From a virus (lineage: Duplodnaviria > Heunggongvirae > Uroviricota > Caudoviricetes): DNA of 64,000 nt. The notes beneath the pieces were generated by a model, which did no database searches, was not told the DNA's origin, and saw only the letters and a program-made list of their open reading frames with translations. The stretch covers positions 29,611-93,610 of the IMG/VR virus record IMGVR_UViG_3300028030_000006, one strand, 5' to 3'. The position numbers and the translations under genes are program-made. Shown one piece after another: positions 2-34,196 of the stretch. Within the stretch, counting starts at the first letter, position 1. Each line of letters begins with the position of its first letter.

Positions 2-3000
2 TCCGGCAATATTTGTAGAGATGCCCATTCTAGTGGGTATTTTGTGGGTGGGTATAATAATATTGGGGCCAGTAATACAAAGACCAACCCAATCTTCACG
101 ATTGGTGGTCATTACTTACCTGGGGATAATGATTTATGTAATATGTATGGTATCGGCTATTCGCACTGTAATGCTAATTATGATGGTATCTCTACAGTAT
201 TACATAATGGGTGGGGAATGTATGTAGCAGCTGCTGGGTGTGCTCGTATTGGTCTTAATGCAACAGCTGGTGTTGGCTGTGCTGTAGGGTGTTGGAAAGC
301 TCCTACTGTTTGTGCTGATTTAAGACTAGCTTCAGTTTGTGGAGCTATTGACAATCTTTGTGTAAACTGTGCATGTATTAACTATACTACGATAGACTGT
401 GCTAGTATAAATCATTTAACAGCTAATACATGTGTTAGTGGGACCATTACGGCTGAGTATGTATGTGCAACTAACACCTTGTGCAGCTCAGACATGGTCG
501 TTGGTGATACGTTTAGAGCTAACTATGCGATGACAGTAGGACGTTTCAGTAACGATGATACGACACACAGTGCTACAATTACATTTAAATCTACAAAATG
601 TGTAGATAGTGCTGACGATATATGTCACGCAGGTACACTTACGTACGATGAAAATGGTGGGTTTCACCTTTCAAGTACTCTACAAAGTACTACATTTATA
701 GGGGATTGTTTAAGTATATCTGGAACTACATGCTTATATAGCGATGTAAGTATGAATAATAACCTATGCGTAGCTTCTAAGGTAAATATACAAGATACTT
801 TAACAACAGCAAGCTCTAAAGTAAGTAGTTATGCTGGAGGTAATGGGGCTCCTGCTATAGCTTTATGTAATAGCGATATCAATGGAATCAATGCTCTAGT
901 TTTTAACGACCCTTCTAACGTTACACATGAAGGTATTTTAGTTCCAACAAAAGATTCCCCTACACAGTTAGCTGACTACTCAAATCTAACTGCGAGAACA
1001 GATGGACAATGGTACGTAGCACCTAAAGCTAATGGTACTGCGTATAAGGTTTGGACTCAAGGCAATATGGGGCCTGGCAGTGGTTTAGACGCTGATAAAA
1101 TTGATGGGATTGATAGTTCTCAGCTAGTGTATGGGGATAATAGTACCGGTACTCGCTGTAATGATAACTTTGATACCATAACTAAATCTGGATTTTATAA
1201 TGCGCAGAATGCTACAGGTTCTCCTTATGATACACAGTGGACTTGGTTAGTACATCATGAACATTCTAACGATAATGGTTATGGGTTTCAAATGGCAGTA
1301 TGTAATGCTGCTACTGCACGTTTAGCTATTAGAACTAAAATGGATGGAAGTGTAAAACCTTGGAGAGAAGTAGCATTTTTAGATAGTGATATTAGTGGAG
1401 ATACTACTGGAAATGCGGCAACTGCAACAAAATTGGCTACAGCGCGAACAATAGGACTATCTGGTGATGTGTCAGGCTCAGCATCATTTGACGGCAGCTC
1501 AGATGTAACTATTATAGCTACTGTAGCGAATGATAGTCATACTCACGATACTAGATATTATACTAAGACTTGTACTGATAGTAAGTATGGAGCGAAAAGT
1601 GGGAGCTTAGATCAGTTTGCAGACTTTGCTGATGGCGATAATCACTGGCACACTGCAGGTAGAGACTTAAAAGTAAACAATAAAAGAGCTATGGTAGGTT
1701 TCTCTAGTACCGATGGTAATAAATTAGTTATTAATTATGACGACGATTTTTCGAATGGTACGTGTATATGTAAAAAGCTTAATACTGGTTGTGTATATGC
1801 CGGATTGTTGCAAGCTACATCAGTATGTAGTACATCTACAGCACGTGTTGGTTATCATAGTAATAATAATTCTACTCATTGTGGAGCTGTAGATTTTAGA
1901 TCAACATTGTGTGTTGACGGTGCTGATGACATCTGTAAAACTGCTAGGATACACTTACAAACTGACAATACACTATGTATTAGTAATGATACTTGGGCTC
2001 CTAAATTTACTGCTTGTGATATTGTAACAACTAGATATGTCTGTGCTCCGTACGTCAAAGGAACTACTTGGGTATGTAGTCCTACTGTATGTGCTACGTC
2101 TAAAGTAAGTACTCCTACACTGTCTGTTGGTACTGTTTCGGAAGGGTTTAGTGTAGGTAGTGTAACTAAAACATCCGATACCACTATTCGTATTAAGTCT
2201 GATGATGGGCATCAAGCGTCTTTAATGGTCTATGGAGATATTCAAGGTACTGGTAGAGTTTATGTAGGACAGTCTCCTACTTATGGTGGTGGTATAGAAT
2301 ATAACGGGGATAATAATCCTGTAACTACTGGTGCTGGAGCCGATTATGTTACAATGTTTAGACGTAATTCAGGTACTGATTATTGGACGGCTAGAAATAA
2401 GTATGATGGGAATGATTGGGAATTTCGTGAAAATGCTATAGCACGACAATGCTTAGTAGCAGGTTATCACAGTAATGATAATACTTCGCATGCTGGTAGT
2501 TTGGTACTTAGAACGACGTGTTGTGTTGCTGATGCTGATGACGTATGTAGAACTGCAAAAATACAGCTATGGAATAATAATTGTGTTTATATAGATCATG
2601 GAATTGTTACTGGTGGTTCTGTTAAAGCTTGTGGTATTATTTGTAGTTGTAATGCAGATGGTAATGTATGTATTGGTGCTCAGAATACAACTTGGGCGCA
2701 TCTAATGACTGATAGACCTAGTTTTTACACTAATAAGTCTTTATCGGTTAATGGTAGTATTTGCGTACATAGTGGGTTAGCTTGTATAGGAGCTAGTGGT
2801 ACTATATTAGCTAAAACTTGTATGATTACACCTATGTTGTGTGGCTGGACCGGTGGTGTAGTAGGACGCTTCAGTAATGATAATACTACACATGCTGCTA
2901 CTCTTACATTTAGATCTGCTAAATGTGTAGATAGTGCTAATGATACTTGCTATTCCGGGTATTTAAACTTTACAGAAAATGGGTATTTTCAGTTATCTGA

Positions 3001-5014
3001 TCACTTATACGGACAAGATTTTCATGGTGGTTTATTTTCAGGTACGTGTTTGAGTATTAATGGTGTTGCTTGTGTATATAATGACATACGTACTAGTAGT
3101 AAAGTATATGCTAATAGTGGTATTTGCGTATCTAGTGGTACTATTACTACTGCACCAGGTAAGAATAGTAGTTACGCCGGTGGCGGTGGAGCTCCTGCAA
3201 TTGCATTATGTAATAGTGAAATTAACGGAATTAACGCTTTAGTGTTTAATGATGTGTCTAACGGTCCTGGTGAGGGTATATTAGTACCTAAAACAGATAA
3301 CCCGTCAGGGTTAGCTAACTACACTAGTTTATATGCTAGATGTGACGGTCAGTGGCATATAGCACCTACTGCTTGTTCTACGTCTTATAAGATCTTTCAT
3401 CAAGGCAATATGGGACCTGGTAGTGGACTAGATGCAGATACTGTGGATGGAGTTGAAGCTAACTCATTAGCTAGGGCAGCTTTTAGGACTGACAATTCTG
3501 GTACAGACAGTACAACATGGTATAAAATTGCGAGAGTGACTCTATCAGGACGTTACCAAAATTATAACACGGAACTTCACTATATGAGTGAAGGTAGTAG
3601 TAATGTTATGCCGTATGTAGGTAAGCTTAATTTGCGTGTTAAGCAGCAAGCTGACTTTGGGAATGATCCTTATGTATCGGTATATGATTATTATGATGTA
3701 GCATCAGTTACAGATTTTAGTTACGTTATTGTTGATAATTCAGGACCATCTATTGTAGATATCTATGTAAAAAATAAATTAACTTATAACTATATTATAG
3801 GTACGCGTATTGAATCTTCTAGTGGTGCTGATAAAGTTGAATATTATGATTTAGCTACAAAACTTACTACGGAGCCTGCTGGGTTAGTACCTGCAGTTAA
3901 GCAGCATGTTGGACGTAGCTATGTGCAGACTTGTGGCGATACTATGACAGGCCAATTAAGTGTTTGTGGTAGTGGTACTATTGGTGGACCTAATGGTAGT
4001 GTTAATAATGGATATATTAGAGTTACGTGTGGTGGTGCTACGCTAGGTATAGATCCTAACGAAATTCAAACTACTGAGAGTGTATTGGGTTTATCTACTG
4101 CTGGTGGTACTGGGACATTAAAATTTAATGATCATACAGTTTGGCATGTAGGAAATATGGGAAGTGGGCATGGTTTAGATGCTGATAAGGTAGATGGATT
4201 ACACGCTAGTCAATTTGTTAGAAGTGATGCTGAAGACCATGCCACGGGTAAATTGTGGTTAGATGGCGGAGCTGTAATAAATAGTCACGTGTGTTGGACA
4301 AACACTAAGAATATTGTTCTTAACGCTAACGCAGATAACGCTGAATGGTCATTTGATTTACATAAATGCGGATATACTGGTGCTAAGTGGCATGTATGGG
4401 ATGAAGATAAAAGTTCATTGTTATCCGTACATCCTGATGATGGTACTGTTTGTACTCACTATAACTTAAGAGTCGGTAGTGCGCTGACTGTTGGCGGGTC
4501 AGCTGGACACTTTTTCAATGATGGTAATGGACGTACTGCGTATACTGGTGCGGACTTTTATATTCAGAGTGGTGCCCCTGTAACATACATTTATAGTCCT
4601 AATATCTACTTAGGAGATTCCGCAGGCTCTACTGTGTGGATGCGCGGCAATGCTTTAGTTGGTAATAATTGGGAGTTTAAAACTTCTGGTGAACTGTTAA
4701 TACATAGCTCTACACCGACGATAAGATTAAAAGATGTAGATAGTACTGGCTCCAATAATGCTATTAAATTCCAAACAGGTGCTAGTCAGGACTTGGCAAT
4801 TCGTCATGAGATCTCTGATAGTAATTTACCAACACCAGGGCAAGCAGTCGTAATACAGAATACATCTGATGCAGGTAATCATACGCAGTTAATAGTAGAT
4901 GAAGATGTATATGTACATGGTGGGAGTGGTACTGATGTATCAGGTGCTGTTAGGGTGCTACATTTAGGAGATTGTGATGATTTTGAAACGGCATATAACG
5001 CTGCCAAAGCGTAA
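2..5014 (+). CDS. Giant tail fibre protein, 5'-truncated by the window start. Internally repetitive, with a repeated ~33-aa Cys-containing motif (GYHSN/RFSNDDTTH...CVDSADDIC) and a repeated 'GNMGPGSGLDADKIDG' motif.
   Basis: The open frame runs from nt 2 with no upstream stop. Residues from nt 2 (SGNICRDAHSSGYFVGGYNNIGASNTKTNPIFTIGGHYLPGDNDLCNMYGIGYS) are near-identical to an internal segment of the next gene (nt 6020-6190). The 1656-aa ORF has low-complexity beta-rich G/S/T/N composition typical of fibres. A ~200-aa module is duplicated at nt 540-1130 and 2860-3470. Confidence 0.7.
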   Translation, partial: SGNICRDAHSSGYFVGGYNNIGASNTKTNPIFTIGGHYLPGDNDLCNMYGIGYSHCNANYDGISTVLHNGWGMYVAAAGCARIGLNATAGVGCAVGCWKAPTVCADLRLASVCGAIDNLCVNCACINYTTIDCASINHLTANTCVSGTITAEYVCATNTLCSSDMVVGDTFRANYAMTVGRFSNDDTTHSATITFKSTKCVDSADDICHAGTLTYDENGGFHLSSTLQSTTFIGDCLSISGTTCLYSDVSMNNNLCVASKVNIQDTLTTASSKVSSYAGGNGAPAIALCNSDINGINALVFNDPSNVTHEGILVPTKDSPTQLADYSNLTARTDGQWYVAPKANGTAYKVWTQGNMGPGSGLDADKIDGIDSSQLVYGDNSTGTRCNDNFDTITKSGFYNAQNATGSPYDTQWTWLVHHEHSNDNGYGFQMAVCNAATARLAIRTKMDGSVKPWREVAFLDSDISGDTTGNAATATKLATARTIGLSGDVSGSASFDGSSDVTIIATVANDSHTHDTRYYTKTCTDSKYGAKSGSLDQFADFADGDNHWHTAGRDLKVNNKRAMVGFSSTDGNKLVINYDDDFSNGTCICKKLNTGCVYAGLLQATSVCSTSTARVGYHSNNNSTHCGAVDFRSTLCVDGADDICKTARIHLQTDNTLCISNDTWAPKFTACDIVTTRYVCAPYVKGTTWVCSPTVCATSKVSTPTLSVGTVSEGFSVGSVTKTSDTTIRIKSDDGHQASLMVYGDIQGTGRVYVGQSPTYGGGIEYNGDNNPVTTGAGADYVTMFRRNSGTDYWTARNKYDGNDWEFRENAIARQCLVAGYHSNDNTSHAGSLVLRTTCCVADADDVCRTAKIQLWNNNCVYIDHGIVTGGSVKACGIICSCNADGNVCIGAQNTTWAHLMTDRPSFYTNKSLSVNGSICVHSGLACIGASGTILAKTCMITPMLCGWTGGVVGRFSNDNTTHAATLTFRSAKCVDSANDTCYSGYLNFTENGYFQLSDHLYGQDFHGGLFSGTCLSINGVACVYNDIRTSSKVYANSGICVSSGTITTAPGKNSSYAGGGGAPAIALCNSEINGINALVFNDVSNGPGEGILVPKTDNPSGLANYTSLYARCDGQWHIAPTACSTSYKIFHQGNMGPGSGLDADTVDGVEANSLARAAFRTDNSGTDSTTWYKIARVTLSGRYQNYNTELHYMSEGSSNVMPYVGKLNLRVKQQADFGNDPYVSVYDYYDVASVTDFSYVIVDNSGPSIVDIYVKNKLTYNYIIGTRIESSSGADKVEYYDLATKLTTEPAGLVPAVKQHVGRSYVQTCGDTMTGQLSVCGSGTIGGPNGSVNNGYIRVTCGGATLGIDPNEIQTTESVLGLSTAGGTGTLKFNDHTVWHVGNMGSGHGLDADKVDGLHASQFVRSDAEDHATGKLWLDGGAVINSHVCWTNTKNIVLNANADNAEWSFDLHKCGYTGAKWHVWDEDKSSLLSVHPDDGTVCTHYNLRVGSALTVGGSAGHFFNDGNGRTAYTGADFYIQSGAPVTYIYSPNIYLGDSAGSTVWMRGNALVGNNWEFKTSGELLIHSSTPTIRLKDVDSTGSNNAIKFQTGASQDLAIRHEISDSNLPTPGQAVVIQNTSDAGNHTQLIVDEDVYVHGGSGTDVSGAVRVLHLGDCDDFETAYNAAKA

Positions 5015-5031
5015 ACTAAAAGGATAAATAT

Positions 5032-8000
5032 ATGGCAGATATGACAAGTTTAGGTACCTTAATTGGTACCGATATAAAAAATATAAATACATGTTTGGGT
5101 ACAAAGTTGAATTGTGCTGGTGGGGCGCTATCTGGAACATTGTTAATGGATAAAATTGGTAGTTGTTCACAATCTATCTATTTTAAAAGCTCTGATTCGA
5201 CCTCTGCTGATTTCGCTATCCGTTCTTACGGTGAAGGGTTAGATTTTTATGAGCCAGAAGATGGTTGTAAATTGCATATGAGAATTTGTGATGACTCTGG
5301 AGTTAATGCTGTCTATGGCTTGATGGAAAATAATGTTAAGTTATGTAATAAGTATTTAGGAAAAACAGCTAAAGCAGCGGATTCTGACAAATTAGATGGC
5401 CAATATAGTAGTGGGTTCAGGAGATCAATTGGTAATGCGTCTGCTAATGTTGGAGTTAATGGAGAATCTCATTGGGTAACTGTTGCTAAGAATGTCGGTG
5501 GTAGGCATAGCGGTACTGTTATTGTCAGTGACCAAGATAGTGGAGATCACTCATTTATTGAAATTAACTGGGTGCGTTCTTATCTAGACTCCTCGTTTAA
5601 TGTTATTAATATTGGAGGACATGCTAACAAGATAACAGGTGTGCGGGTATTATATAATAACAATAATGATGGGTCTAATGGAAATATCTATAAAGAAAAA
5701 TTGTTACAAGTACAAGTGACTGCTCAAAGTACATATTCAGTAAAAGTTATAAGTGACTCATACACACCTGGTTGGGGTGGGCATACTGTAGTTACACCAA
5801 TTGTGGAAGATACAAAAACTGACTATTTAACTAAAGGCCCAGTACTTACAGATATTGCTTGTAATACAAGTGCTATACAGAAACATTTGACTGTTGGGGG
5901 CGATACTAAAGTACATGGAATGATGTGCTCCACTAAATCTTGCAGTAGTTGTGACTATGGGGCTTATATGTGCAGGAGCTGTATCAATACTATTGTAACT
6001 TGTGCAGATAAAGTATTGATGTCAGGTAATATTTGTAGAGATGCCCATTCTAGTGGCTATTTTGTTGGTGGGTATAATAATATTGGGGCCAGTAATACAA
6101 AGACCAACCCAATCTTCACGATTGGTGGTCATTACTTACCTGGGGATAATGATTTATGTAATATGTATGGTATCGGCTATTCTAACCATTGTGCTAACTA
6201 TGATGGTATTTCTAATGTGCTAGGTGGCAGTAATTGGGGTTTATATGTGGCTTCTGCTGGGTGTGCTCGTATTGGTCTTGGATCAAGTAATGGTGTTGGC
6301 TGTGCTGTGAGTTGTTGGAAAGCTCCTGTTATATGTGGAACCACTGCCGTATGTACAGCGTGTATAGCTACTGGGCGATTGGAGGCTACAGCAGACATTA
6401 CTGCTCAAGGTTGTATTTACTCGAATAGTTGTATTGTAACAAGTGGTATTATTAAGGGAGCTACAGTTTGTGGTTTTAATAAAGTAATTGGTCCTGTTGG
6501 ATGTTTTACTACACAAAACACGGTAGGGTACTACAGTAACAACGATACAACACATTGCGGAAAAATAGAATTTCGTTCAGCGTTAAGTGTAGCAAATGCT
6601 GATGATACGTGTCTATCATCTTGCCTATATCTGCACACAAATAATATATTACACTCGAATGTATCTATATGTACTCAAAGATTATACACTAACATTACCT
6701 GTACTGATAGGATTAAATTTAAGCCTGGTACGGCTGGTAGTGATGATGCGTCAATTGAGTGGTTAGGTAGTGACAATGCTGGATGTTTAAGGATATCAAC
6801 TAGTGATGATAATGGTTCTGAGCCAATAGAGTTTGGGGATTATGATAATACACACCAAGGTGGAGCTTTTTGTAGTTGGGGTAGATGGAATAGAGCAGGA
6901 TTACAGCTATCTAATGATTTAGTAGTTAAAGGTGGTGATATATGTATCTGTAACGTTAATAAAGGTATCAGTTTTCAAGACTGTAATAGGATGTGGTTAT
7001 CTACTGGTGGCAATAAAGACTGGGGGTTATTTTGGAATACTGATACTAACTCATTTGAGTTGAAGGCTGCTGGTACAACTAAACAGATCTTTGATATTGA
7101 TGCTAATAGTATTACTGCTGGCTGTTTTTGCGGTAAAGCTAGTAGTGCTAATGGTGCAGATTGTGCTGACCATGCAAGATTTGCTTGTTGTGTATGTGTA
7201 CACCAGACGGATACTGGAACTGGTGAGTATGAGATGGTTTGGCAAAATGCTGATAAGTGTCTGTATAGTTCGACTAGCTTTGTTATATACAGAGGTGGCA
7301 CATCACGGGAAACTCCATTTATTAAAATTGGTGCTTGGGGGTCTGATGACGTAGATAGAACGTCAGCTATCTGTTTTAGAAGTCAGTGTAAGTGCGGTGA
7401 CGGGGATACTGTATGTCATGCAGGATCAGTATACCTTGCAAAAGATGGAGACTTATATACTGCACAAAATTTCCACTCTAACGCACTATATTCTGGTGCT
7501 TTATGCGCTAATACTATCGGTGTAGGACAAACAGACGGTGTTTGTGGCCATGGTGTAAGTTTGTACGGTGGTCCGAGTAGCGGCATGCCAACATACGGTA
7601 TGGCATTTGCAAAAACTTGTACGTATGGTACATATGGTTGTGTGTCTGGAGATTGGGCGACTTATCTTACTATGAGCACTAATGCAGGACGTGGGTGGAT
7701 ATTTAAAGCTGCTGGTGGTAGTAATGTCGCAAGTATTAGTAATGACGGTAGGATGTGGTTAAATAGTAGTATGTACTCTCCTACCATTTGTGGTTGTAAT
7801 TACCAGACTAGAGACCAAAACAGTGGATACTGTCTAAAACACGTATCTAACAGTACTACACCTGTTTGCAGAACGTCTGGTAATATTATAACAGGTGGTA
7901 GTGATTATGCAGGGTTAGGTAAGCTTAACAATGTTGCGGTACAGACATGGTATGGATTTTCTATTAGTCCGACTATTAGTGGGCAAGCTATTGCTCAAGG

Positions 8001-8934
8001 TAAACCAGCATTTAGTGTTAACGCTAGAAATGGTTGTACGATTGTCGCAGGAAATGCTACAGCATTGGGATCAATTACAGCAGAATGCTCTATCACTGCA
8101 GGGCACTATAGTAACAACAATACGATCCATGGTGGTGTTATCCTATTCAAAGGGTCTAAATGTGTAGCGGATGCTGATGATATCTGTATTGTACAGCGCA
8201 TATGTTTGAACCCTTATGCTGGCTCATTAGAGACAGCTACAACATTTTGCGCCTCACAACTCCATACAGATCTAGTATCAGCGTGCAACCTTCACGCAGA
8301 ATGTACTGTAGAGATCGGTAGTATATCGTGCAATCGAGATAGTAAGTTGTCTGTATTTGCTGGCGATGCTAATGTAGCTACAATACAGGCACTAGGAAAT
8401 AGTCAAGGAACAGGTAGATTATTCGTTGGCCAGTCCACTACTTATGGTGGAGGTATTGAGTACAATGGTGATAATAATCCTGTAACTACTGGTGCTGGAG
8501 CCGATTATGTTACGTTATATCAAAAACGAAACGGAACTTTTAATTGGACTGCTAAAAACTATGTTAATAGTTATAATTGGGAGTTTCGAGGGGATGTTAA
8601 AGCTGTATCGTTTACAGAGACTTCTGCTAAACGGTATAAAACTGATATTTGTGAGTATGGTAAACAAACTTGCGTTTTATGTAGTTTAGCTAAATTAAGA
8701 CCAGTTACATATAAATTAAAGGAGGATTCAAATCATTGTAATCAGTATGGATTTATTGCAGAGGATGTGGAACAAGTATTCCCTGAATTTGTTCAGTATG
8801 ACGTATCTGGTGAGCAGGTAGAAGGGCTTCAGTATGCTAAAATGGTTAGTGTACTAACCGCAGGTATACAAGAGTTAAAAGAGCTTGTTGAGAAGCAAGA
8901 TAAACGAATAAAAGAGCTAGAGCAGATACTTTAG
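5032..8934 (+). CDS. Tail fibre protein with C-terminal intramolecular chaperone (peptidase S74-like) autoproteolytic domain
   Basis: RBS AAAAGGA precedes the ATG at 5032. The 1300-aa product shares modules with the upstream fibre (nt 6020-6330 ~ nt 2-330; GQSPTYGGGIEYNGDNNPVTTGAGADYVT at 8428-8510 ~ 2268-2350). The C-terminus '...QYGFIAEDVEQVFPEFVQYD...LQYAKMVSVLTAGIQELKELVEKQDKRIKELEQIL' matches the endosialidase/T5 L-shaped-fibre chaperone domain pattern. Confidence 0.75.
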   Translation: MADMTSLGTLIGTDIKNINTCLGTKLNCAGGALSGTLLMDKIGSCSQSIYFKSSDSTSADFAIRSYGEGLDFYEPEDGCKLHMRICDDSGVNAVYGLMENNVKLCNKYLGKTAKAADSDKLDGQYSSGFRRSIGNASANVGVNGESHWVTVAKNVGGRHSGTVIVSDQDSGDHSFIEINWVRSYLDSSFNVINIGGHANKITGVRVLYNNNNDGSNGNIYKEKLLQVQVTAQSTYSVKVISDSYTPGWGGHTVVTPIVEDTKTDYLTKGPVLTDIACNTSAIQKHLTVGGDTKVHGMMCSTKSCSSCDYGAYMCRSCINTIVTCADKVLMSGNICRDAHSSGYFVGGYNNIGASNTKTNPIFTIGGHYLPGDNDLCNMYGIGYSNHCANYDGISNVLGGSNWGLYVASAGCARIGLGSSNGVGCAVSCWKAPVICGTTAVCTACIATGRLEATADITAQGCIYSNSCIVTSGIIKGATVCGFNKVIGPVGCFTTQNTVGYYSNNDTTHCGKIEFRSALSVANADDTCLSSCLYLHTNNILHSNVSICTQRLYTNITCTDRIKFKPGTAGSDDASIEWLGSDNAGCLRISTSDDNGSEPIEFGDYDNTHQGGAFCSWGRWNRAGLQLSNDLVVKGGDICICNVNKGISFQDCNRMWLSTGGNKDWGLFWNTDTNSFELKAAGTTKQIFDIDANSITAGCFCGKASSANGADCADHARFACCVCVHQTDTGTGEYEMVWQNADKCLYSSTSFVIYRGGTSRETPFIKIGAWGSDDVDRTSAICFRSQCKCGDGDTVCHAGSVYLAKDGDLYTAQNFHSNALYSGALCANTIGVGQTDGVCGHGVSLYGGPSSGMPTYGMAFAKTCTYGTYGCVSGDWATYLTMSTNAGRGWIFKAAGGSNVASISNDGRMWLNSSMYSPTICGCNYQTRDQNSGYCLKHVSNSTTPVCRTSGNIITGGSDYAGLGKLNNVAVQTWYGFSISPTISGQAIAQGKPAFSVNARNGCTIVAGNATALGSITAECSITAGHYSNNNTIHGGVILFKGSKCVADADDICIVQRICLNPYAGSLETATTFCASQLHTDLVSACNLHAECTVEIGSISCNRDSKLSVFAGDANVATIQALGNSQGTGRLFVGQSTTYGGGIEYNGDNNPVTTGAGADYVTLYQKRNGTFNWTAKNYVNSYNWEFRGDVKAVSFTETSAKRYKTDICEYGKQTCVLCSLAKLRPVTYKLKEDSNHCNQYGFIAEDVEQVFPEFVQYDVSGEQVEGLQYAKMVSVLTAGIQELKELVEKQDKRIKELEQIL

Positions 8935-9284: not shown

Positions 9285-9809
9285 ATGAGTAATTTTGAAA
9301 AGGCGTTAAACGAAGTATTAAAAGATGAGGGAGGGTACGTAAAAGACCCTCTCGATAATGGTGGTGAGACATTTAAAGGTATATCTAGACGTTACTTTCC
9401 TAAGTGGGAAGGGTGGGACATTGTAGATGTAAACCATTTTGATGAACGTTTAGATGATCTTGTGAGTAAGTTTTATAAGCACTACTTTTGGGATACTTTA
9501 AAGTTGGACGACGTACAGAGCCCATTTATAGCTGAAATGTTATTTAATGTTGGAATAAATCAAGGTAAGAAAGTTGTAACGAAGAAAGTGCAGCGTATCT
9601 TAGGCGTATCCGTAGATGGTATTATTGGGCCTAAGACGATAAGTGCTTTGAATAGTGTAGATGAAGGTAAATTTGTATTTCAATTTATTCTTGAAACTAT
9701 TGACTTGTATGTACATATCGTAAACACACATACAAACCAACGAAAGTTCCTACTTGGTTGGTTAAATAGGGCGATGCGTTTATATCATAAATACCTACGA
9801 GAGGGTTAA
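9285..9809 (+). CDS. Peptidoglycan hydrolase: GH108 N-terminal domain plus C-terminal peptidoglycan-binding domain
   Basis: N-terminus 'FEKALNEVLKDEGGYVKDPLDNGGETFKGIS' matches the GH108 signature (EGGY..DP.D.GG.T..GI). The C-terminal 'VSVDGIIGPKTISALN' is a PG_binding-like motif. RBS AAAAGGA is present. Confidence 0.7.
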   Translation: MSNFEKALNEVLKDEGGYVKDPLDNGGETFKGISRRYFPKWEGWDIVDVNHFDERLDDLVSKFYKHYFWDTLKLDDVQSPFIAEMLFNVGINQGKKVVTKKVQRILGVSVDGIIGPKTISALNSVDEGKFVFQFILETIDLYVHIVNTHTNQRKFLLGWLNRAMRLYHKYLREG

Positions 9810-9819
9810 ATCTCTCGTA
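9796..9819. terminator. Hairpin at the convergent gene junction (8-bp stem TACGAGAG/CTCTCGTA, 8-nt loop). Candidate bidirectional terminator.
   Basis: A perfect inverted repeat overlaps the lysin stop codon and lies 14 nt from the stop of the convergent - strand gene. No clear U-tract is present. Confidence 0.35.
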
Positions 9820-9832
9820 AGTATATGGTACG

Positions 9833-11032
9833 TTAAAAGTGTACAACCTTAACGTCCTCAATTCTCCCATCAGACTCTACAAATAATAACGTCTGACATG
9901 GTGTAATAGCAGAAAATCCTGACTGAACACCATATGATGTGTTACCAACCATTGTACCATTTACAATATTTAGACCTTTGTACTGGTTAGTTGCAGATAT
10001 AAATGAATGTGTATGCCCAGATATTGCGTGCCTGTAAGGTTTACCAAACAGTTGGATACAAGTATCTTGAAGTTTAGATCTAGCTGCTACTGTAGTGGGG
10101 CTGTATGTACGTTGAGTATCTCCGTGCATCAGCAAAATATTTGCAGTATTTACATTTAATAGCTGGTAGCCTGTATCGGTCGTGTGTATTATTACATTAT
10201 CCCATTTACCTGCTGTGATGATCTGCTTTAAAAGTAAATCGATTAACCTACCATAATCAAGATGTTTATTAGTTGTTTTAATGTCATCAGTTAAACGCTC
10301 ATGATTAGATCCTGTTGAATATAGTTCTACTACTTCATAATGTGCTCGCAAAGTGTTTAGCATAGCAGTGTACAACTCAACGGCTTTAGCAATGCTCTCA
10401 ATCACACTTCCCTCAGTTTCCCACATACCTCCATGAATCACACCTTTTAAGATATCTTTAAGGTCTGCAATTATTAACCTTTTTGACTGCTTATTACTAT
10501 TTAGGATAGCTGAAGTAAAACGCTCGATACGTAATTTTGCCACTTCATAGTTATACTCATTATCCGGCACATCATTTGGTGTTACTACTTCACCTAAGTG
10601 AATATCAGACATAACTGCAATCAGACCATACATTGGTATATTAGCGGTAAGCTCTGCATGTGTAGTTAGCTCAGGCACCTCTATAGCATCAACAACAGAT
10701 GATAATACAGACGTAAACTTATCTAAAGCTGCACCTTTAGCGATACTTCTACGTTTCGTAGCTCTATGATAATTCAACTCATTTCTAGAGTGTTGTAGTG
10801 ATTTTTCTAACTGTAATGCTTTGGTTTCGATAACATCAAACTTTGTCTCAATACTTTCACCACTTAAATACTGCTCATAGCTTTCAGCTCTATCTTTAAC
10901 CCTAATCTTCAAACCTTCTGATATGAACCAACGGCGTATTGCGTACTGATTAACACCAATAATGTCCTGCATCTCTTTCATAGATTTACCTTCTACATAC
11001 ATAGAAAGCAATAACTCTTCATAATCCTCCAT
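9833..11032 (-). CDS. HTH (sigma region-4-like) DNA-binding domain fused to a calcineurin-like metallophosphoesterase
   Basis: N-terminus 'SMKEMQDIIGVNQYAIRRWF' is HTH-like. Metallophosphoesterase motifs are present: 'AVMSDIHLGE', 'GNHE', 'LLMHGD', 'GHTHS'. Confidence 0.5.
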   Translation of the reverse strand: MEDYEELLLSMYVEGKSMKEMQDIIGVNQYAIRRWFISEGLKIRVKDRAESYEQYLSGESIETKFDVIETKALQLEKSLQHSRNELNYHRATKRRSIAKGAALDKFTSVLSSVVDAIEVPELTTHAELTANIPMYGLIAVMSDIHLGEVVTPNDVPDNEYNYEVAKLRIERFTSAILNSNKQSKRLIIADLKDILKGVIHGGMWETEGSVIESIAKAVELYTAMLNTLRAHYEVVELYSTGSNHERLTDDIKTTNKHLDYGRLIDLLLKQIITAGKWDNVIIHTTDTGYQLLNVNTANILLMHGDTQRTYSPTTVAARSKLQDTCIQLFGKPYRHAISGHTHSFISATNQYKGLNIVNGTMVGNTSYGVQSGFSAITPCQTLLFVESDGRIEDVKVVHF

Positions 11033-11041
11033 ACTACAACC

Positions 11042-11950
11042 TTATTTAGACTGTAGTTGTTTATCTAACTCAGCAATAATAGTATTACTATCGATACTGA
11101 TATAGTATGGATCAAACGGGTTAAACTCTTGAATTTTCCCTTTGAAGTTAGTTAAGTTTGTATGTATTTTCCACCCAAACTGCCAAGCAGGGATACCACC
11201 ATATAATGCTATAGCTGGTTTGTTATTTGCTGCCGCCATATGACATAAGCTACTATCAATACAAATTATTGCTTTAGCGTGCTTTGCAAGAATATTATAT
11301 GCTATTGATGGCAACTCTAACTGCGTTGTATGAGGAAATTTAGGGTGCTCATTTGGTAAACTATAATCAACTATAGCAAGATCCGGATACTTAGCATGTA
11401 TCTTCTGTAACAGCACATTAACAAATGGTATAGGATAATTACGCTGCTCATGCATCAACCCAGTATGATACTGCGACTCTTTCGGGTTAAAATCTACAGG
11501 ACTTTGGCCTCCTGTAAACTGGACTAAGATAAAGTCCACTAATTCCTCAGCAATACTTTCTGCATGCTTTGTGAGATCTTCAGGTATGACTGGTAACTGC
11601 GGTAAATTGTCTGGAGAATATTCAACCCCTAACTCATTAGCCCAATACTCGAGTAGATGCTTATCGCCATATAAACTAAAATTACCTTTGTATGGTTCGC
11701 TATAAATTAAATCTGTAGTTACTCTACGTAAATCCTCAGTACCTACAGCATCTGGAGTAAATACTCCTTGAACCCCTGGTATACCTACATATACATCAGG
11801 ATATGGGGACACGATATTGATAGCCCCGACTCCTGATTTACGTACCAATGCTGGAATCAATGATGTAAACATTATATGCTTACCTATACCACCCTCCACA
11901 TTATAGGTTGGTGCTTTGACAATTTGTTGTGTTTGTTGTTTATTTTCCAT
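11042..11950 (-). CDS. Glycosyltransferase family 9 (heptosyltransferase-like)
   Basis: C-terminal 'AIICIDSSLCHMAAANNKPAIALYGGIPAWQFGW' fits the GT9 'DSGpmHLAAAlg.P.vaLFGpT' motif. Confidence 0.45.
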   Translation of the reverse strand: MENKQQTQQIVKAPTYNVEGGIGKHIMFTSLIPALVRKSGVGAINIVSPYPDVYVGIPGVQGVFTPDAVGTEDLRRVTTDLIYSEPYKGNFSLYGDKHLLEYWANELGVEYSPDNLPQLPVIPEDLTKHAESIAEELVDFILVQFTGGQSPVDFNPKESQYHTGLMHEQRNYPIPFVNVLLQKIHAKYPDLAIVDYSLPNEHPKFPHTTQLELPSIAYNILAKHAKAIICIDSSLCHMAAANNKPAIALYGGIPAWQFGWKIHTNLTNFKGKIQEFNPFDPYYISIDSNTIIAELDKQLQSK

Positions 11951-13604
11951 TTGTTTCCTTTTTTGTTACTAATAGGTTTTGGTCAGCAAAGTAAATATAC
12001 TTAAATTCAGCATTGTCTAACGTGTGTAGTGCATCTTCTACAGTTTCAACAAGAGGTTCCCCACTTAAGTTGAAGCTAGTATTCCCTAATACGCCTACTC
12101 CACTAAGTTTTTTATACTCGACAAGAATGTCGTATAGTACTTTGTTCTGCTCTCGAGTGACTGTTTGTACTCGTGTTGTTAGATCATGATGAACTACAGC
12201 AGGTATTTGTGCTTTAACATCTTCAGTTGTAGGAAATGCTACCATCATATAAGGACTACTAGTGATACCAATAGGATCCCAAAGTGTTGATAAATCTTCT
12301 TCAAGTACGCTACAAGCGAAAGGTCTAAAGTACTCACGTTTTTTAACGCGATTCATACTATCTTTCCCGTCGTGTAATGTTGGGTTAAATAAAAATGAAC
12401 GATTACCTAAAGCTCTTGGACCTGCTTCTGAACGTCCTTGGTATAAAGCAACAATCTCACCCTCATCCACCAATTTAGCGATTTCTTTAAGATTTCCAGG
12501 CTTAGTTACCATGTACTCATAAATTGGTACCACATCATCAGCAGTATACTCCCCACCGGTGTAGTAGTTATCTATACCGCGAACCTTATTAATATCTCCA
12601 CCTGCTGTGATAAATCCGTACTTTGCTGCACCTATACTATTACCTGAATCATTACAAGTAGGCTCAAACCAGAACTCGTAATCTGGAAACTTTTGAAGAA
12701 GTTTCGCATTATTTACAACATTTAACCCGTACCCGCCAGAGATACAAATATGTTTACTACTTGGATTCATTGCAATAGCCCTACTCACAAGCATAGTAGC
12801 TAGCTGTTCGCTAGTATATTGAATTTTTCTAGCGATATTTTCAGCGAACCCTTCAGGATTACCTTTATTTACCTGAGCTGTTACTGTATCTGTAACGCTA
12901 GTTGTCGCAGGATAGTGCGGTTCAAAGTACTCTAGCTTACCTCGATTACCTGTATATAATTGAGGGATACGACTATCGAATTTACCATAAGCAGCTAAAC
13001 CCATTGTTTTTCCTGCTTCGATAGGGTGCCAACCTAATAACTGAGTTACGCCTTCATACATCTTCACTATGGTAGGCTCTGGCGCTACAGTTACATCACC
13101 AGACGTGCCTCTCAATTCAACGTTATTGGTTATAGCTTCTAGATGTAAGCGTTGAATACCTGCAGAAGCAGAAGCTTTAAATATCGACTCTGCCTCATAA
13201 GCAACATCAGTATCTGTAACTTTCAGCTCACTACCAGCACCATCAATGACAACTACAGTAGCATCATTAAATCCGCTATTTAAAAATGCGTTAGTAGCAT
13301 GCATAAGATGGTGTTTATCGCTTACATCTATAACATTTTTAACAGTCGCTCCTAGTTTTTCCAAGAACTCAACGTAGTAACTCGTACCATTCCACGGCGT
13401 TGGTGTAATAGGTGTGGTTGCTGATAGTACTAATGTGTCAATCTCTTTTGTATATTCAAGTACTTTTAACAGTGCTTTAAAAGGATTACCATCTCTTTTT
13501 ACTCTTGATAAGCGTTCTTCTTCTATATGCAGAACTAGCTCACCATCTTTTAGTAGTGCTACGGAACTGTTGTGTCCTATAGCAACTCCAAGTATGTAAC
13601 TCAT
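11940..13604 (-). CDS. NodU/CmcH-family carbamoyltransferase
   Basis: N-terminus 'MSYILGVAIGHNSSVALLKDGELVLHIEEERLSRVK' matches the carbamoyltransferase N-terminal (ASKHA-like) signature. The 554-aa length is typical. Confidence 0.6.
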   Translation of the reverse strand: MSYILGVAIGHNSSVALLKDGELVLHIEEERLSRVKRDGNPFKALLKVLEYTKEIDTLVLSATTPITPTPWNGTSYYVEFLEKLGATVKNVIDVSDKHHLMHATNAFLNSGFNDATVVVIDGAGSELKVTDTDVAYEAESIFKASASAGIQRLHLEAITNNVELRGTSGDVTVAPEPTIVKMYEGVTQLLGWHPIEAGKTMGLAAYGKFDSRIPQLYTGNRGKLEYFEPHYPATTSVTDTVTAQVNKGNPEGFAENIARKIQYTSEQLATMLVSRAIAMNPSSKHICISGGYGLNVVNNAKLLQKFPDYEFWFEPTCNDSGNSIGAAKYGFITAGGDINKVRGIDNYYTGGEYTADDVVPIYEYMVTKPGNLKEIAKLVDEGEIVALYQGRSEAGPRALGNRSFLFNPTLHDGKDSMNRVKKREYFRPFACSVLEEDLSTLWDPIGITSSPYMMVAFPTTEDVKAQIPAVVHHDLTTRVQTVTREQNKVLYDILVEYKKLSGVGVLGNTSFNLSGEPLVETVEDALHTLDNAEFKYIYFADQNLLVTKKETNGK

Positions 13605-14359
13605 TTGCTACCCCCTTTGCAGTGTATACCAACATTATTAAAGTCTCTAAACTCATTTACTGGTCGTATAACATAACCTTTTTTGTTTACCCGTTGTAGT
13701 GTGCCTATTTTTATAGTCTCAACAGGTAATTTATATGTATTTGTTTGCAAATTGTCATTCCAAGATAATTCACTCATTTTATCGTCCCATAGAATGTCTG
13801 GAACACCAACCCATAAATCTTCAGACGGGACGATAAGTTTGGCGTCTGACAACTCAGTATAATACTTAGAACGCAAATAGTTCTCCTTTCCAAATAACTT
13901 ATAAATCCAGTAACTATCACATAAGTCGTATAGTCCTGTCGTTTTCTTAACACCTGACGCAAGAACTAATGAGATAAACTCAGGACTGTCATCATTTGTA
14001 GCGTTAAACATATCTACTTTCTTTGCGGTACCTTTACCAGTAGCTAATTTTTTGACTTTAGTCACATGACTTTCTGCAAACAATAAATGCTCAGTCATGC
14101 ATAGATCCTGTATCATCATATGTAGGGCAGCTAGAGGTCTAACAGACGTACTATTAATACCAAAAGGTAGACTCTCAATTACAATTGTAGTAACATTAAA
14201 TTCTTTAACTAATTTACGTAACTCAGATAGTATGTAACGTATCCTCAATATGGTCTCTTGTTTTGGATCACTTTTAATGACTGTAAAACCTTCTAACGTG
14301 CCACCCTGCCATATTGTAACACCTGAAGCTGTTAGACTTTGGTCTATACTCATAATCAT
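13601..14359 (-). CDS. RuvC-like Holliday junction resolvase with a C-terminal extension
   Basis: 'IMSIDQSLTASGVTIW' is the RuvC motif I (IlGIDPG...G.a). 'IVIESLPFG' carries the catalytic Glu. 'DLCDSYWIY' carries the Asp motif. Confidence 0.55.
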   Translation of the reverse strand: MIMSIDQSLTASGVTIWQGGTLEGFTVIKSDPKQETILRIRYILSELRKLVKEFNVTTIVIESLPFGINSTSVRPLAALHMMIQDLCMTEHLLFAESHVTKVKKLATGKGTAKKVDMFNATNDDSPEFISLVLASGVKKTTGLYDLCDSYWIYKLFGKENYLRSKYYTELSDAKLIVPSEDLWVGVPDILWDDKMSELSWNDNLQTNTYKLPVETIKIGTLQRVNKKGYVIRPVNEFRDFNNVGIHCKGGSK

Positions 14360-14871
14360 AAGACCAAATCCCGAACAGGTGCTGGCAGTTTCAACTGTTG
14401 GACCAACTGTAACAAATCACGCTTGTCGTTATAAGTTAATACGCCTATTTTCTCAATCCCAGAGTGTGGGACAAGATACAACTTAAAGCCGATATCAAGC
14501 TCATTCACAATCCTAAATGTCTTAATAAGGGCACGCCGATCTGTATAGCCAGGCACCCAACTAGGTAAATCGATTATAGTAGAACGATCTATAGTCGGTA
14601 AAATAGGTCTAATCTCTAATAAAAATTGGACGGCCATAGGGTATCTAAAAAGGTATGGTATATTGTCTGTTGTAGCAATAGCTGTAAGTGGGGCTAGTAC
14701 TCCGTCAAACTCAAGATCTGTGTTGTTTGTAATCTCCTGTATAGCCGTACCTAACAGCTTATGCTTTGCTAAGGTACAGACAAGTCCAACTAACACATCC
14801 TCGATACCTCTTGGTCTGTAGGTTGGCTTTAAATGAAAGCCATCCAGCAGTGCTGTTGCTACTGATTGCAT
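14356..14871 (-). CDS. Hypothetical protein
   Basis: 171-aa ORF, tightly packed with overlapping start/stop contexts. Confidence 0.4.
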   Translation of the reverse strand: MQSVATALLDGFHLKPTYRPRGIEDVLVGLVCTLAKHKLLGTAIQEITNNTDLEFDGVLAPLTAIATTDNIPYLFRYPMAVQFLLEIRPILPTIDRSTIIDLPSWVPGYTDRRALIKTFRIVNELDIGFKLYLVPHSGIEKIGVLTYNDKRDLLQLVQQLKLPAPVRDLVL

Positions 14872-21227: not shown

Positions 21228-21911
21228 TCATATTTTGGTTCTACGTTTCCATATCAGTGTTTCATATATCTCGTCATACTTTACACCACTAAATGTCGAT
21301 TCATCATCATTCAAAGCCTTAACAACTTTCTGTACTTCATATATATTTGCTTTTGATTTTGGTAGTCTGCAAATATCCACCATATCATCTAGCGTAATAC
21401 CTACACGCTTTCGTATGCGATTATCCTGCATCGTAAGATACCAGAACAAGGCGCGCTGGTGTGGTCCAGATAAGCGCATCAACATCTTAAGCGAAGCTGA
21501 AGCAAACTTTTCAGATAAATTTAAAAGGTATGGCGCTAAGCGTTGGTTGATTAGTAGTGTAATCTTCCCAGCTTTCCATATACTTGTCGTAAAAATTACT
21601 TCAGTGATACGTTTATCGGTGTCTTCGTCAGTAAACGTAACTGTGACGCCTACAGCCTTTTGTACAGCTAAAGCACAGTTACGTTTACTCATAGGCATCA
21701 AATCGGTGAAATCCTCCCAATCAATCTGTATAGGTTTTATTTCACAATCTCCGTCACCAGATGTACCGTTATGGATATGACTTATAGCGTAATACATAAG
21801 GGCTGCTGTATTGGCCTCTTTAGGTACATCTATCACATGTCTAGCCATATCATTACGCATCACCACTTGATAATTTTCAACATTACGTATATATCCTTTA
21901 CGCTTACTCAA
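21228..21911 (-). CDS. Hypothetical protein adjacent to the iterons (possible DNA-binding or replication-associated)
   Basis: 227-aa ORF, basic, with no recognised motif. Its position directly upstream of the primase and beside the iterons suggests an origin-binding role, but this is inference only. Confidence 0.45.
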   Translation of the reverse strand: MSKRKGYIRNVENYQVVMRNDMARHVIDVPKEANTAALMYYAISHIHNGTSGDGDCEIKPIQIDWEDFTDLMPMSKRNCALAVQKAVGVTVTFTDEDTDKRITEVIFTTSIWKAGKITLLINQRLAPYLLNLSEKFASASLKMLMRLSGPHQRALFWYLTMQDNRIRKRVGITLDDMVDICRLPKSKANIYEVQKVVKALNDDESTFSGVKYDEIYETLIWKRRTKI

Positions 21912-25599: not shown

Positions 25600-26319
25600 T
25601 TAATCATGCTCTTCGGTTGAATCCCCTGACCATTTATCTATTACTTCTTGAGCTTTTTCAAACTCTTCTTTAGCTAAGCGTTTTTCCTCCTCCTTTAAAT
25701 ACTCTAAAGTTTGTGCCTTGCGTGCAGCCATAACAGACTCCCAACGTTGTAATATCTCATCTCGCGCCATAAATATATCAGTACCAGCAAGTACCGACTC
25801 AATTTCATCAGAGGATAAAAATGTGTCATATACATCACGGAAAAATGATTCAAAGTGTGGCAAATCAAACTTATACCGAGCTTTGTGCTCATTCGCTTTT
25901 AATACTCCGTTAGACCCAGACCACGCATGTATCATTATCGAGCCCCAAGTACTGACCTCGATAGTATCCATAGCCATTAATAGCATAGTACCTGCTGATG
26001 CTACATCTCCAACTACTCGTCCGTGTATACTAGCTTGGCATGTCAATATTGCATCTAATATAAACATCGCAGTATAAGCATCCCCACCAGGAGTACTTAA
26101 TATAAATTCGACAGTATCTTGCTCCTTCGCAGCTTTAAGTACTTCTACTATCTCAATAACGCTGTGTGGATCACCTAATGCGGTCGTAATGTAAATACGT
26201 GTATGTAATTTGTCACAACCAGCTTGCGTCGATAATATTGGATATTGCTTACTCCAGATATCTTTAGCTTCATCGTCAACAAGCTCCGTTGTATTTCCTT
26301 TTAAACTAGCACTAAACAC
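25600..26319 (-). CDS. ClpP-like serine protease
   Basis: 'GDVASAGTMLL' is Ser-nucleophile-like (G.AAS.G). 'IMIHAWSGS' is His-like. The fold length fits ClpP. Confidence 0.55.
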   Translation of the reverse strand: MFSASLKGNTTELVDDEAKDIWSKQYPILSTQAGCDKLHTRIYITTALGDPHSVIEIVEVLKAAKEQDTVEFILSTPGGDAYTAMFILDAILTCQASIHGRVVGDVASAGTMLLMAMDTIEVSTWGSIMIHAWSGSNGVLKANEHKARYKFDLPHFESFFRDVYDTFLSSDEIESVLAGTDIFMARDEILQRWESVMAARKAQTLEYLKEEEKRLAKEEFEKAQEVIDKWSGDSTEEHD

Positions 26320-33132: not shown

Positions 33133-33879
33133 TTAGATAGAGTATATCGGAAAGCTGCTTAAAACTTCCTTAATCTCTGCTTCAGTTACATTATTTGGTA
33201 GCGTAGTCTGATCTTTCCATGATGGTCCAATATCTAACTCAGCTTCGTTGTGGATAACTTGATTCTCACAATAATCTTGTACCATATGAGGGATAAGGTG
33301 GTCGTTTAACCATTTAATACTCTCAACATCAGCTTTCACTAAACCATACAAGGCATCATGTATTTGGTTAGTTACAATAACGTAATCTTGCATACTATCG
33401 TGCTCAATATCTTCTTGTAACCCAATACCAGCTCTGTTCATCAATAAACCGTATGACTGAATACTCATATTATTTAAAGTTCTACCTTCTTTACCAGCAA
33501 TAATACGGTCATTGCTCCATATCCTAGGGGTACGTAATTTTAACCCGAAAGCTCCAATAATGTATCCTGTAGCTTTCGATTTACGTATGTTCTCTTCTGC
33601 AAATTTAGCAGTACCGTAGTACAGCTCATGGTACCCGTCATAAACTGCATTTGCTACAGTTTTAGAGCACTTCAATAGATCCTGTATCTTACCTGGACCT
33701 GAACCATAAGCCATCGCAAAAGATGGGCTTTTACTTTTCGCCCTAATATCTGGCAACTCTGTTTTAATTCTGTTGATGGACTTTGGATCACTCATATCCA
33801 ACTCTTCGCCTAACGCTTCGTCTATCTCGTCTTTAAAGAACGCGTAAGCTCTTAGACTATGTCCATCGAACCCTTCACC
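33133..33879 (-). CDS. DNA polymerase A, C-terminal part (exon 2 or second polypeptide): O-helix (motif B) and motif C
   Basis: The open frame extends upstream of the track start (a TTG at 33801) to a stop at 33880-33882. It contains 'IRAKSKSPSFAMAYGSG' (motif B, R..AK...F...YG) and 'NQIHDALYG' (motif C, with HDA in place of HDE). Confidence 0.6.
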   Translation of the reverse strand, partial: GEGFDGHSLRAYAFFKDEIDEALGEELDMSDPKSINRIKTELPDIRAKSKSPSFAMAYGSGPGKIQDLLKCSKTVANAVYDGYHELYYGTAKFAEENIRKSKATGYIIGAFGLKLRTPRIWSNDRIIAGKEGRTLNNMSIQSYGLLMNRAGIGLQEDIEHDSMQDYVIVTNQIHDALYGLVKADVESIKWLNDHLIPHMVQDYCENQVIHNEAELDIGPSWKDQTTLPNNVTEAEIKEVLSSFPIYSI

Positions 33880-34010
33880 TTAATGTTCAACATAGGTCGT
33901 TAATCTATGCCAGTTCTCTTATGAACTTCTGTATATCTCTATACAGAGCAGATCATCTCAACATCCTAGTAATTTAAGGATGACCACCGTTTCTTCCCAC
34001 TTGGGTTCTA

Positions 34011-34196
34011 CTAGCTTACGCTATGATCGTTAGACATTTTAATAACGTCTGATATAATATTATGTGTAAATAGTTCTGTATTCCCTTTTCTCACCAATAC
34101 TCTCGAGCCTGTATACAATTTATCTTGATGTTTATTACGTATTTGTTGCTCAATTTTGTGGGCTAATTCTAAAGCTTCAAGTTCTACTGAGTACAA
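34011..34196 (-). pseudogene. Remnant of a T5orf172/GIY-YIG-like endonuclease C-terminal domain
   Basis: The 61-aa ORF 'LYTGSRVLVRKGNTELFTHNIISDV' parallels the C-terminus of the neighbouring 315-aa endonuclease ('YYGRKVIRSGNTELYTQDITEI'). Confidence 0.4.

Follow-up and report, generated by a model that had tools for sequence, protein, structure and literature searches.

A phage-restricted GT9-fold glycosyltransferase paired with an O-carbamoyltransferase, and its possible role in tail fibre modification

Introduction

Glycosyltransferase and other 'LPS' (lipopolysaccharide) genes have been known in the host-recognition regions of marine phages since 2005 and have been assumed to remodel the host surface. 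The described system closest to the one reported here is the 'LPS gene' cluster T4-GC 302-308 of the cyanomyophages (Kyanoviridae), in which T4-GC 302, a 'hypothetical protein' in RefSeq, lies side by side with T4-GC 303, a 'Nol-like' carbamoyltransferase that usually counts among the auxiliary metabolic genes. We have analysed a 64,000-nucleotide stretch (the window) of the IMG/VR virus record IMGVR_UViG_3300028030_000006, from a phage of about 93.5 kb without a close relative in INPHARED, which carries the same two genes, a glycosyltransferase (GT) and a carbamoyltransferase (CT), next to one another:

11042-11950, minus strand: GT, 302 amino acids, ATG start; GT9 fold, phage-restricted subfamily
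11940-13604, minus strand: CT, 554 amino acids, ATG start; NodU/CmcH/TobZ-type O-carbamoyltransferase
11940-11950, minus strand: overlap of the CT stop with the GT start, 11 nt, read directly off the sequence

The cyanomyophage cluster resembles the window pair in its genes. T4-GC 303 is the best phage match of CT (36-41% identity), and T4-GC 302 belongs with the window GT to one family of GT9-fold glycosyltransferases, in which it is a divergent member. The order in the cyanomyophages is GT then CT, whereas in the window CT comes first; the cyanophage GTs are longer (370-415 amino acids against 302); the cyanophage pair is accompanied by genes for nucleotide-heptose synthesis, a cupin and 2-oxoglutarate (2OG) oxygenases, none of which is found in the window; and their genomes, unlike that of the window, are T4-like. 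We regard the window as a minimal, non-T4-like form of the module, GT and CT alone, which was already visible but unannotated in the cyanomyophages. The comparison brings T4-GC 302 and the 'Nol-like' CT together with the HTVC111P-type pelagiphage glycosyltransferase, and these constitute one phage-specific system linked to tail fibres.

We propose that GT and CT would act in the cytoplasm as a two-step module for decorating a glycan. GT would move a sugar in nucleotide-activated form, most probably host-supplied ADP-heptose, onto an acceptor, and CT, using carbamoyl phosphate and ATP by way of carbamoyl-AMP, would O-carbamoylate a hydroxyl of that sugar. By analogy with TibC/Aah, the acceptor would most likely be the phage's own fibrous virion protein or proteins, which in the window means two Cys-rich products, the tail fibre and the tail protein, whose genes lie 2 kb off. 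We tentatively favour glycosylation of the phage's own fibres over remodelling of the host envelope. The fuller proposal, that a phage-restricted branch of GT9, often together with a dedicated CT and, in cyanophages, with a phage-encoded pathway to ADP-heptose, attaches heptose and carbamoyl groups to the tail fibres of the phage itself, is offered as a possibility, with a little more reserve.

Carbamoyltransferase

By its sequence, CT is a full-length O-carbamoyltransferase of the NodU/CmcH/TobZ type, and the identification made in an earlier note on this DNA is borne out. Both Pfam domains match well above their cut-offs (Carbam_trans_C, E 1e-53 and 181.8 bits against 27; Carbam_trans_N, E 1.8e-26 and 93.9 bits against 24) and phrog_1601, 'Nol-like carbamoyltransferase', covers the whole length (E 1.4e-134). 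The N-terminal domain is Kae1-like with an HxxxH motif (HHLMH, H98-H102), and the C-terminal domain is YrdC-like with GPRALGNRS at residue 395. This architecture and these motifs, which belong to the metal and carbamoyl-phosphate sites, are shared with TobZ, NodU, CmcH, NovN and GdmN, enzymes that act on hydroxyl groups, often of sugars (TobZ, NodU, NovN), although the identity is low. The solved relatives are 7xb6, TobZ (3ven), decarbamoylnovobiocin carbamoyltransferase (9s2t) and GdmN, with E values of 2e-47 to 1e-35 (the comparison with TobZ itself gives E 3e-40). CT is not an orthologue of NodU proper (NF041651, 168.9 bits against a cut-off of 1000). Membership of the HypF clade, which the earlier note had raised as an alternative, falls, as CT scores 11.5 bits against TIGR00143 with its cut-off of 466 (E 0.059).

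Glycosyltransferase

GT is an enzyme of the GT9 fold in which the donor site is conserved and the acceptor half novel. That the 302-residue protein is GT9-like had been noticed before and holds: Pfam Glyco_transf_9 (PF01075) matches at 33 bits against a gathering cut-off of 22, though over the 33-residue stretch 220-252 only. In the confident AlphaFold model (pLDDT 95.5) the predicted GT-B fold comes closest to GT9 enzymes of solved structure, and the top structural matches include WaaF and WaaC. The family is well conserved in an alignment of 51 homologues, with motifs GGxGK, QFxGGQ, R170, LPNE and IDSSLxH, which in the window protein read GGIGK (20-24), QFTGGQ (144-149), R170, LPNE (198-201) and IDSSLCH (231-237). 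R170, E201, D232, S233, S234 and H237, together with the Gly-rich loops, are invariant or nearly so over these 51 divergent members. Comparison with WaaC by hhalign and hmmsearch (the Escherichia coli WaaC and WaaF sequences were taken from NC_000913) equates R170 with K192, D232 with D261, S233/S234 with T262/G263 and H237 with H266; in WaaC, K192, D261 and the D-T-G-x-x-H loop form part of the site for the nucleotide sugar (ADP-heptose).

The resemblance to WaaC and WaaF is confined to the C-terminal donor domain, the only part of GT that aligns in profile comparison. The N-terminal acceptor domain is unalignable and is acidic (isoelectric point 4.7, against 5.6 for the entire protein), and we therefore regard the acceptor half as novel. 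GT also stays below the equivalog cut-offs of WaaC (30.7 bits, cut-off 185), WaaF (24.3, cut-off 135) and WaaQ (21.1, cut-off 170), and across the LPS heptosyltransferase equivalogs as a whole it scores 19-31 bits against cut-offs of 135-569. Its restriction to phages, described below, is a further difference from WaaC and WaaF.

A few members of the family (P0061, P0083, P0133 and P0146) have C-terminal extensions of about 250 amino acids, one of which carries LLDADMWF, a DxD-like motif, and another a weak similarity to the methyltransferase StiE that is not significant (E 0.55). The extensions of P0083 and P0146, searched against the PDB, gave no significant match; such extensions may be fusions to other glycan-tailoring domains.

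Conservation of the pair

The GT9 subfamily is phage-specific, and no characterised member was found in the literature searched. Six matches were obtained in 185,579 species genomes (one genome per species), all on contigs of metagenome-assembled genomes (MAGs), and the three of these that were examined closely look phage-derived: L173 and L175 carry tail genes, and L176 has a phage-type cluster with a split CT. In a set of 1.84 billion clusters the family counts just 214 representatives (E<=1e-30). A scan of IMG/VR with the single GT sequence gave nothing, and an alignment-based scan was needed.

The pairing to which the earlier note had drawn attention recurs in relatives. When GT sequences are dereplicated at 80% identity, 15 of 52 clusters have a CT within three genes of GT (7 of 44 if loci found through CT are left aside), while such a CT occurs anywhere in just 142 of 50,697 phage records; adjacency is therefore more than chance. 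The closest relatives of the window GT (L003/L004 and L007) have CT directly followed by GT, and L160 has the same order between JmjC and 2OG oxygenases. A distant clade (L144, L153, L155, L164 and L176) has GT followed by a CT that is split into two open reading frames (ORFs), amid 2OG oxygenases and a GT2-like gene.

Approached from CT, the association is seen in all eight distinct phage CTs inspected at ~36-41% identity to the window CT, where a GT-family ORF ends at the start of the CT. The eight are the cyanomyophages S-CAM3, S-CAM1, P-SSM2, S-SSM7 and Sf-FS3 and the single-cell viral contigs AG-345-P14, -F15 and -O18; P-SSM5 is also among the best CT matches and lies outside the eight. 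The GT profile finds the abutting ORFs with E 1e-14 to 1e-20, and the motifs GGxG, R, E and DSxxQH are retained in them. No GT-family neighbour accompanies four CTs of lower similarity (S-CAM8, S-RIM44, HTVC008M and AG-345-E02). The T4-GC 302 homologues of GT lie at the following positions:

L170, 5848-6987
L171, 5874-6986
L178, 5838-6983
L179, 5743-6990
L187, 5819-6985

As the pairing is conserved over unrelated phages, GT and CT are functionally coupled. In the window, the adjacency and overlap by a few nucleotides that the earlier note described are confirmed, and the 11-nt overlap suggests translational coupling as judged from the sequence; a Shine-Dalgarno-like AAGGAAA stands 6 nt ahead of the GT start.

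The transferred sugar

In S-CAM3, S-CAM1, P-SSM2, S-SSM7 and Sf-FS3, nucleotide-heptose genes follow within a few genes of CT, and the combination of heptose with O-carbamoyl chemistry put forward in the earlier note gains support from these five cyanomyophages. The annotations after the pair are heptose 7-phosphate kinase/adenylyltransferase, carbohydrate kinase, phosphoheptose isomerase and nucleotide-sugar epimerase, and the Pfam matches of the pathway proteins are PfkB, CTP_transf_like, Epimerase, cupin and a weak HAD-like match. These neighbouring genes point to heptose as the sugar that GT would transfer, and CT would presumably act on the sugar so transferred. The heptose assignment depends partly on RefSeq annotation, since the 'phosphoheptose isomerase' of S-CAM3 is only weakly HAD-like by Pfam. 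This protein (gp150; L170 9780-10100) has 106 amino acids, no match to the SIS domain and a weak HAD/PNKP-phosphatase-like match; its annotation may be wrong and the protein GmhB-like instead.

A phmmer search of all six-frame ORFs of the window with the cyanophage pathway proteins and E. coli RfaD found no nucleotide-heptose synthesis gene at E<=0.1, so the host of this phage would have to supply the donor. Cyanobacterial LPS is reportedly free of heptose as well as of 3-deoxy-d-manno-octulosonate (Kdo) (PMC4515613), which would explain why the cyanophages carry the heptose pathway themselves.

The pair sits among DNA-metabolism genes, and DNA hypermodification has to be considered: CT would carbamoylate 5-hydroxymethylcytosine (5hmC) and GT would glycosylate hydroxymethylated bases. 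There is a precedent in the same superfamily, a phage-encoded TobZ-like CT identified by MetaGPA that makes 5-carbamoyloxymethylcytosine from 5hmC (PMC8670742). That enzyme co-occurs with ThyA-type hydroxymethylases and deaminases, whereas the window CT is accompanied by a glycosyltransferase and ThyX, and in the same study the glycosyltransferase-flanked CTs are those in unmodified contigs (PMC8670742). The residues considered for specificity in the 5hmC system stand at TobZ positions W408, G421 and R423. Among the window ORFs searched there is no ThyA-type hydroxymethylase (PF00303), the only thymidylate synthase being ThyX (PF02511); 29.6 kb of the source contig (k141_416043, ERZ27262679), which presumably hold structural genes, lie outside the window. 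The thymidylate synthase beside the S-RIM44 CT is likewise annotated ThyX, the nearest relatives of the window CT accompany heptose genes and not ThyA, and the GT family is found mostly in small phages, directly after tail-fibre genes. As no ThyA-type enzyme was found among the window ORFs searched, and on the context statistics of PMC8670742, we reject carbamoylation of 5hmC, and consider DNA hypermodification in general very improbable. The earlier note had named DNA and protein as alternative substrates of the pair; DNA is thus unlikely, and protein is the best fit to the synteny described next.

Tail fibres and the acceptor

In 51 of 73 viral loci the GT gene comes directly after a large, repeat-rich tail-fibre or tailspike ORF. 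After dereplication a fibre gene lies at most two genes upstream of GT in 17 of 44 clusters, and at most three genes to either side in 33 of 52. In the pelagiphage isolates HTVC111P and HTVC112P, GT has the tail fibre gene on one side and the lysis genes on the other, and the gut phage contig L173 has baseplate wedge, fibre and then GT. In L007 fibres of the S74 type flank the CT-GT pair on both sides. The cluster is placed between two tail-fibre genes in S-CAM3, S-CAM1 and P-SSM2; a tail-fibre gene lies upstream of it in S-SSM7 (where only the upstream end was inspected), and in Sf-FS3 neck and head-closure genes follow it. Oxygenases of 2OG, JmjC or prolyl-4-hydroxylase-like type surround the pair in L153, L160 and Sf-FS3.

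Two tail proteins are encoded near the pair in the window, the S74-type fibre gene at a distance of 2.1 kb and on the opposite strand:

5032-8934, plus strand: tail fibre, 1300 amino acids, 5.2% Cys, C-terminal Peptidase_S74 chaperone domain (PHROG tail-fibre families and Peptidase_S74 precomputed for an identical gene)
44-5014, plus strand: large tail protein, 1656 amino acids from the first in-window start (1703 by the gene call of the source contig), 3.8% Cys

Both are Cys-rich, with 5.2% and 3.8% against 1.5% for the 45 largest ORFs of the window. They share near-identical segments (2-194 and 6022-6214, 94% identity) and a repeat, [YFH]SN[ND][DN][TS]xH..F[RK]S..CVD.ADD.C, which is also present in a Cys-rich (6.8%) ORF directly after CT-GT in L003 (10880-13084). 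Proteins of about 300 amino acids with 8-12% Cys stand between fibre and GT in S-CAM3, P-SSM2 and S-CAM1 (L170, L171 and L178, ~2100-5700), and two of those in S-CAM3 match Pfam Gly_rich_2, one of them weakly. A Cys-rich ORF of at least 250 amino acids occurs within four genes of GT in 19 of 52 GT clusters. We infer that the tail fibre is the candidate acceptor, with the larger tail protein as a second candidate.

The autotransporter heptosyltransferases TibC and Aah (BAHT family) are the precedent for the role we propose for GT, being cytoplasmic, GT9-like enzymes that heptosylate a fibrous, repeat-rich surface protein encoded alongside. The N-lobe of TibC has a four-stranded sheet (PMC4358343), and the N-lobe of the GT model likewise has four strands. 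No similarity of GT to TibC was detected at the level of sequence, and GT is shorter than TibC/Aah by about 100 amino acids. TibC and Aah are encoded beside their substrate; the window fibre gene is 2.1 kb off on the other strand, although fibre adjacency is common in the relatives of GT. Glycosyltransferases are reportedly encoded beside structural genes also in viruses that glycosylate their own virions, namely mycobacteriophages (capsid and tail), Mimivirus (fibrils) and chloroviruses (capsid), with GT families and sugars that differ from those considered here. Such viruses sometimes add sugar-nucleotide synthesis and tailoring genes. To our knowledge there is no report of a GT9 enzyme, of heptose or of a carbamoyl group on any phage virion.

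Several observations weigh against a fibre acceptor, or against GT as a transferase of this kind. The window pair is co-transcribed with replication and recombination genes on the strand opposite the fibre genes, a placement no less compatible with an early function directed at the host than with fibre modification. Fibre adjacency after dereplication is moderate and not universal. The window fibres fall outside the phrog_4636-type family that most GT homologues follow (jackhmmer), and since this type of fibre is present in many phages that have no GT, GT can be at most accessory to it. TibC/Aah, the only protein heptosyltransferases known, form a dodecamer and have an iron-finger Cys4 motif and a beta-hairpin thumb (PMC4358343), features that GT, with two Cys (0.66%), does not possess. 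In the literature searched, members of this GT subfamily are not the subject of any experiment, and the published interpretation of such clusters is modification of the host O-chain or LPS (PMC1079782, PMC3037559, PMC7029224). Finally, no conserved acidic residue is seen at the site expected for an equivalent of WaaC D13 or TibC D110; the N-domain is unalignable by sequence, and the beta1-loop-helix that corresponds in topology reads GGxGK.

This missing acid at the expected catalytic-base loop would also fit a protein that is no transferase at all. The GT gene holds the post-fibre position typical of fibre chaperones, and GT might be a non-catalytic factor in fibre assembly; the GT9-like PnsB1, for example, is a structural subunit. 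Alternatively, the substrate tailored by the pair might be a small molecule or a different polymer (capsule, S-layer glycan or teichoic acid). Some family members lie on contigs binned with Firmicutes MAGs, which also speaks for an explanation of this general kind. We judge these explanations improbable. The invariance, or near invariance, of the donor-site residues over 51 divergent members is not expected of a pure scaffold, and catalysis is also favoured by inheritance together with an active-looking CT and with genes of nucleotide-sugar synthesis.

The more serious rival, and a close one, is the host envelope: GT would add heptose or another sugar to the LPS core or a surface glycan of the host, CT would carbamoylate it, and the receptor would be masked. 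Among the GT9 enzymes that have been characterised, LPS core heptosyltransferases are the majority; the structural matches to WaaF and WaaC, the position of the pair in an early/middle-type replication operon and the published, speculative view of cyanophage and pelagiphage 'LPS genes' also agree with such a role. The core HepII of Pseudomonas aeruginosa reportedly bears a 7-O-carbamoyl group, which provides a precedent for the modification. Tail-fibre synteny is also compatible with a host target, because receptor-blocking genes can adjoin receptor-binding genes, as llp of T5 is said to do. We nevertheless think a host target somewhat unlikely, and we are equally doubtful that masking would serve to exclude superinfection or to stop progeny re-adsorbing to debris. 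GT falls far short of the LPS heptosyltransferase cut-offs; its acceptor domain, unalignable to those of WaaC and WaaF, is acidic, whereas Kdo2-lipid A is anionic, which would make for a poor match of charge. The family is nearly absent from bacterial genomes, unlike a host-derived auxiliary gene, and the module occurs in phages of cyanobacteria, with LPS that reportedly has neither heptose nor Kdo (PMC4515613). In most relatives GT ends the late structural operon, just ahead of the lysis genes, which is late for remodelling an outer membrane. The LPS inner core, the target suggested in the earlier note, is accordingly left unsupported by the sub-cut-off WaaC, WaaF and WaaQ scores, the acidic and unalignable N-domain and the near absence from cellular genomes.

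Tail-fibre synteny, phage restriction, the protein-modifying neighbours and the TibC/Aah precedent lead us to prefer a fibre acceptor over the LPS core. If the fibre is the acceptor, this would be a new modification of the virion that might affect host range, adsorption and the stability of the particle in highly abundant ocean viruses. It would be widespread, in cyanomyophages, HTVC111P-type pelagiphages and the present phage of about 93.5 kb, as well as in some gut phages, and the 'LPS genes' of marine phages would have been misread for two decades. If the host envelope is the acceptor, the pair would offer a rare instance in which LPS is rewritten by a lytic phage.

A further gene of possible protein modification was seen in HTVC111P, where gp50 (L001 234-641), immediately upstream of the tail protein genes, belongs to the HlyC family of RTX-toxin lysine acyltransferases (PF02794, E 2e-12). 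On its sequence and position, this hints that HTVC111P-type pelagiphages acylate a structural protein too.

Genomic setting

The genes that adjoin the pair in the window are as follows:

13601-14359: RuvC, overlapping the CT start by 4 nt
9833-11032: exonuclease, next after GT and 9 nt from the GT stop
9285-9809, plus strand: endolysin, convergent with the CT-GT operon and one gene (the exonuclease) from the pair

Inside the CT-GT gene string we found no promoter- or terminator-like sites exceeding the expectation from shuffled sequence; with the tight spacing and overlaps of the genes, this places CT-GT within one tightly packed operon. The minus strand of the window encodes SbcCD, primase, a DnaB-type helicase, ribonucleotide reductase, ThyX, a split PolA, ligase and Pnkp/RNA ligase, and the plus strand two very large tail proteins and the endolysin; the phage looks lytic. 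The earlier note's placement of the pair in a DNA-metabolism region needs one correction: the pair stands at the edge of the replication/recombination operon, near the endolysin and tail fibre, and not deep within it. A megablast of window positions 9800-14400 against the 50,697 phage records gave no match, that is, no close DNA relative. A protein identical to the window GT is recorded on a metagenome contig of 93.5 kb.

Other features of the window

The family-A DNA polymerase (33133-37393, minus strand) is split into ORFs of 595 (35606-37393) and 222 amino acids (33133-33801), and between the two parts lies an HNH endonuclease ORF (34394-35341), an arrangement that resembles a homing-endonuclease or intron-type interruption. 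The kinase-phosphatase-ligase of Pnkp/RNA ligase type (39237-41468, minus strand; 743 amino acids; phrog_8238, E 8e-182) has its nearest phage relatives, at ~35% identity, in phages of Staphylococcus, Lactobacillus and Bacillus. This is odd beside the endolysin (GH108 + PG_binding_3), which we take to be of a type usual in phages of Gram-negative hosts. Within the replication module there are also a plasmid-type Rep3_N initiator, a ClpP-like protease and an SPFH/Band-7 protein (21228-21911, 25600-26319 and 44601-45902, respectively, all minus strand).

A 302-amino-acid ORF at 58881-59789 (minus strand) has a reverse-transcriptase domain (RVT_1, E 1.3e-23). A diversity-generating retroelement was considered here but is not supported: in the sole repeat pair close by (61074-61271 and 62384-62581), which is 79% identical, the mismatches are of every type and not adenine-specific. 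The last 3 kb of the window have low coding potential and a GC content raised to 0.44, and from 63850 to 64000, up to the window end, there is a perfect 12-nt tandem repeat (TAAGCCATACGC) of at least 10 copies. By coordinate mapping a related ENA contig ends near window position 63916, and the repeat end of the window is probably a genome or contig terminus. Two further repeats lie within ORFs, an 18-nt tandem array of nine copies (49868-50088) inside a 198-amino-acid ORF (49637-50233), and a 21/24-nt repeat (50928-51146) in a 298-amino-acid ORF (50699-51595).

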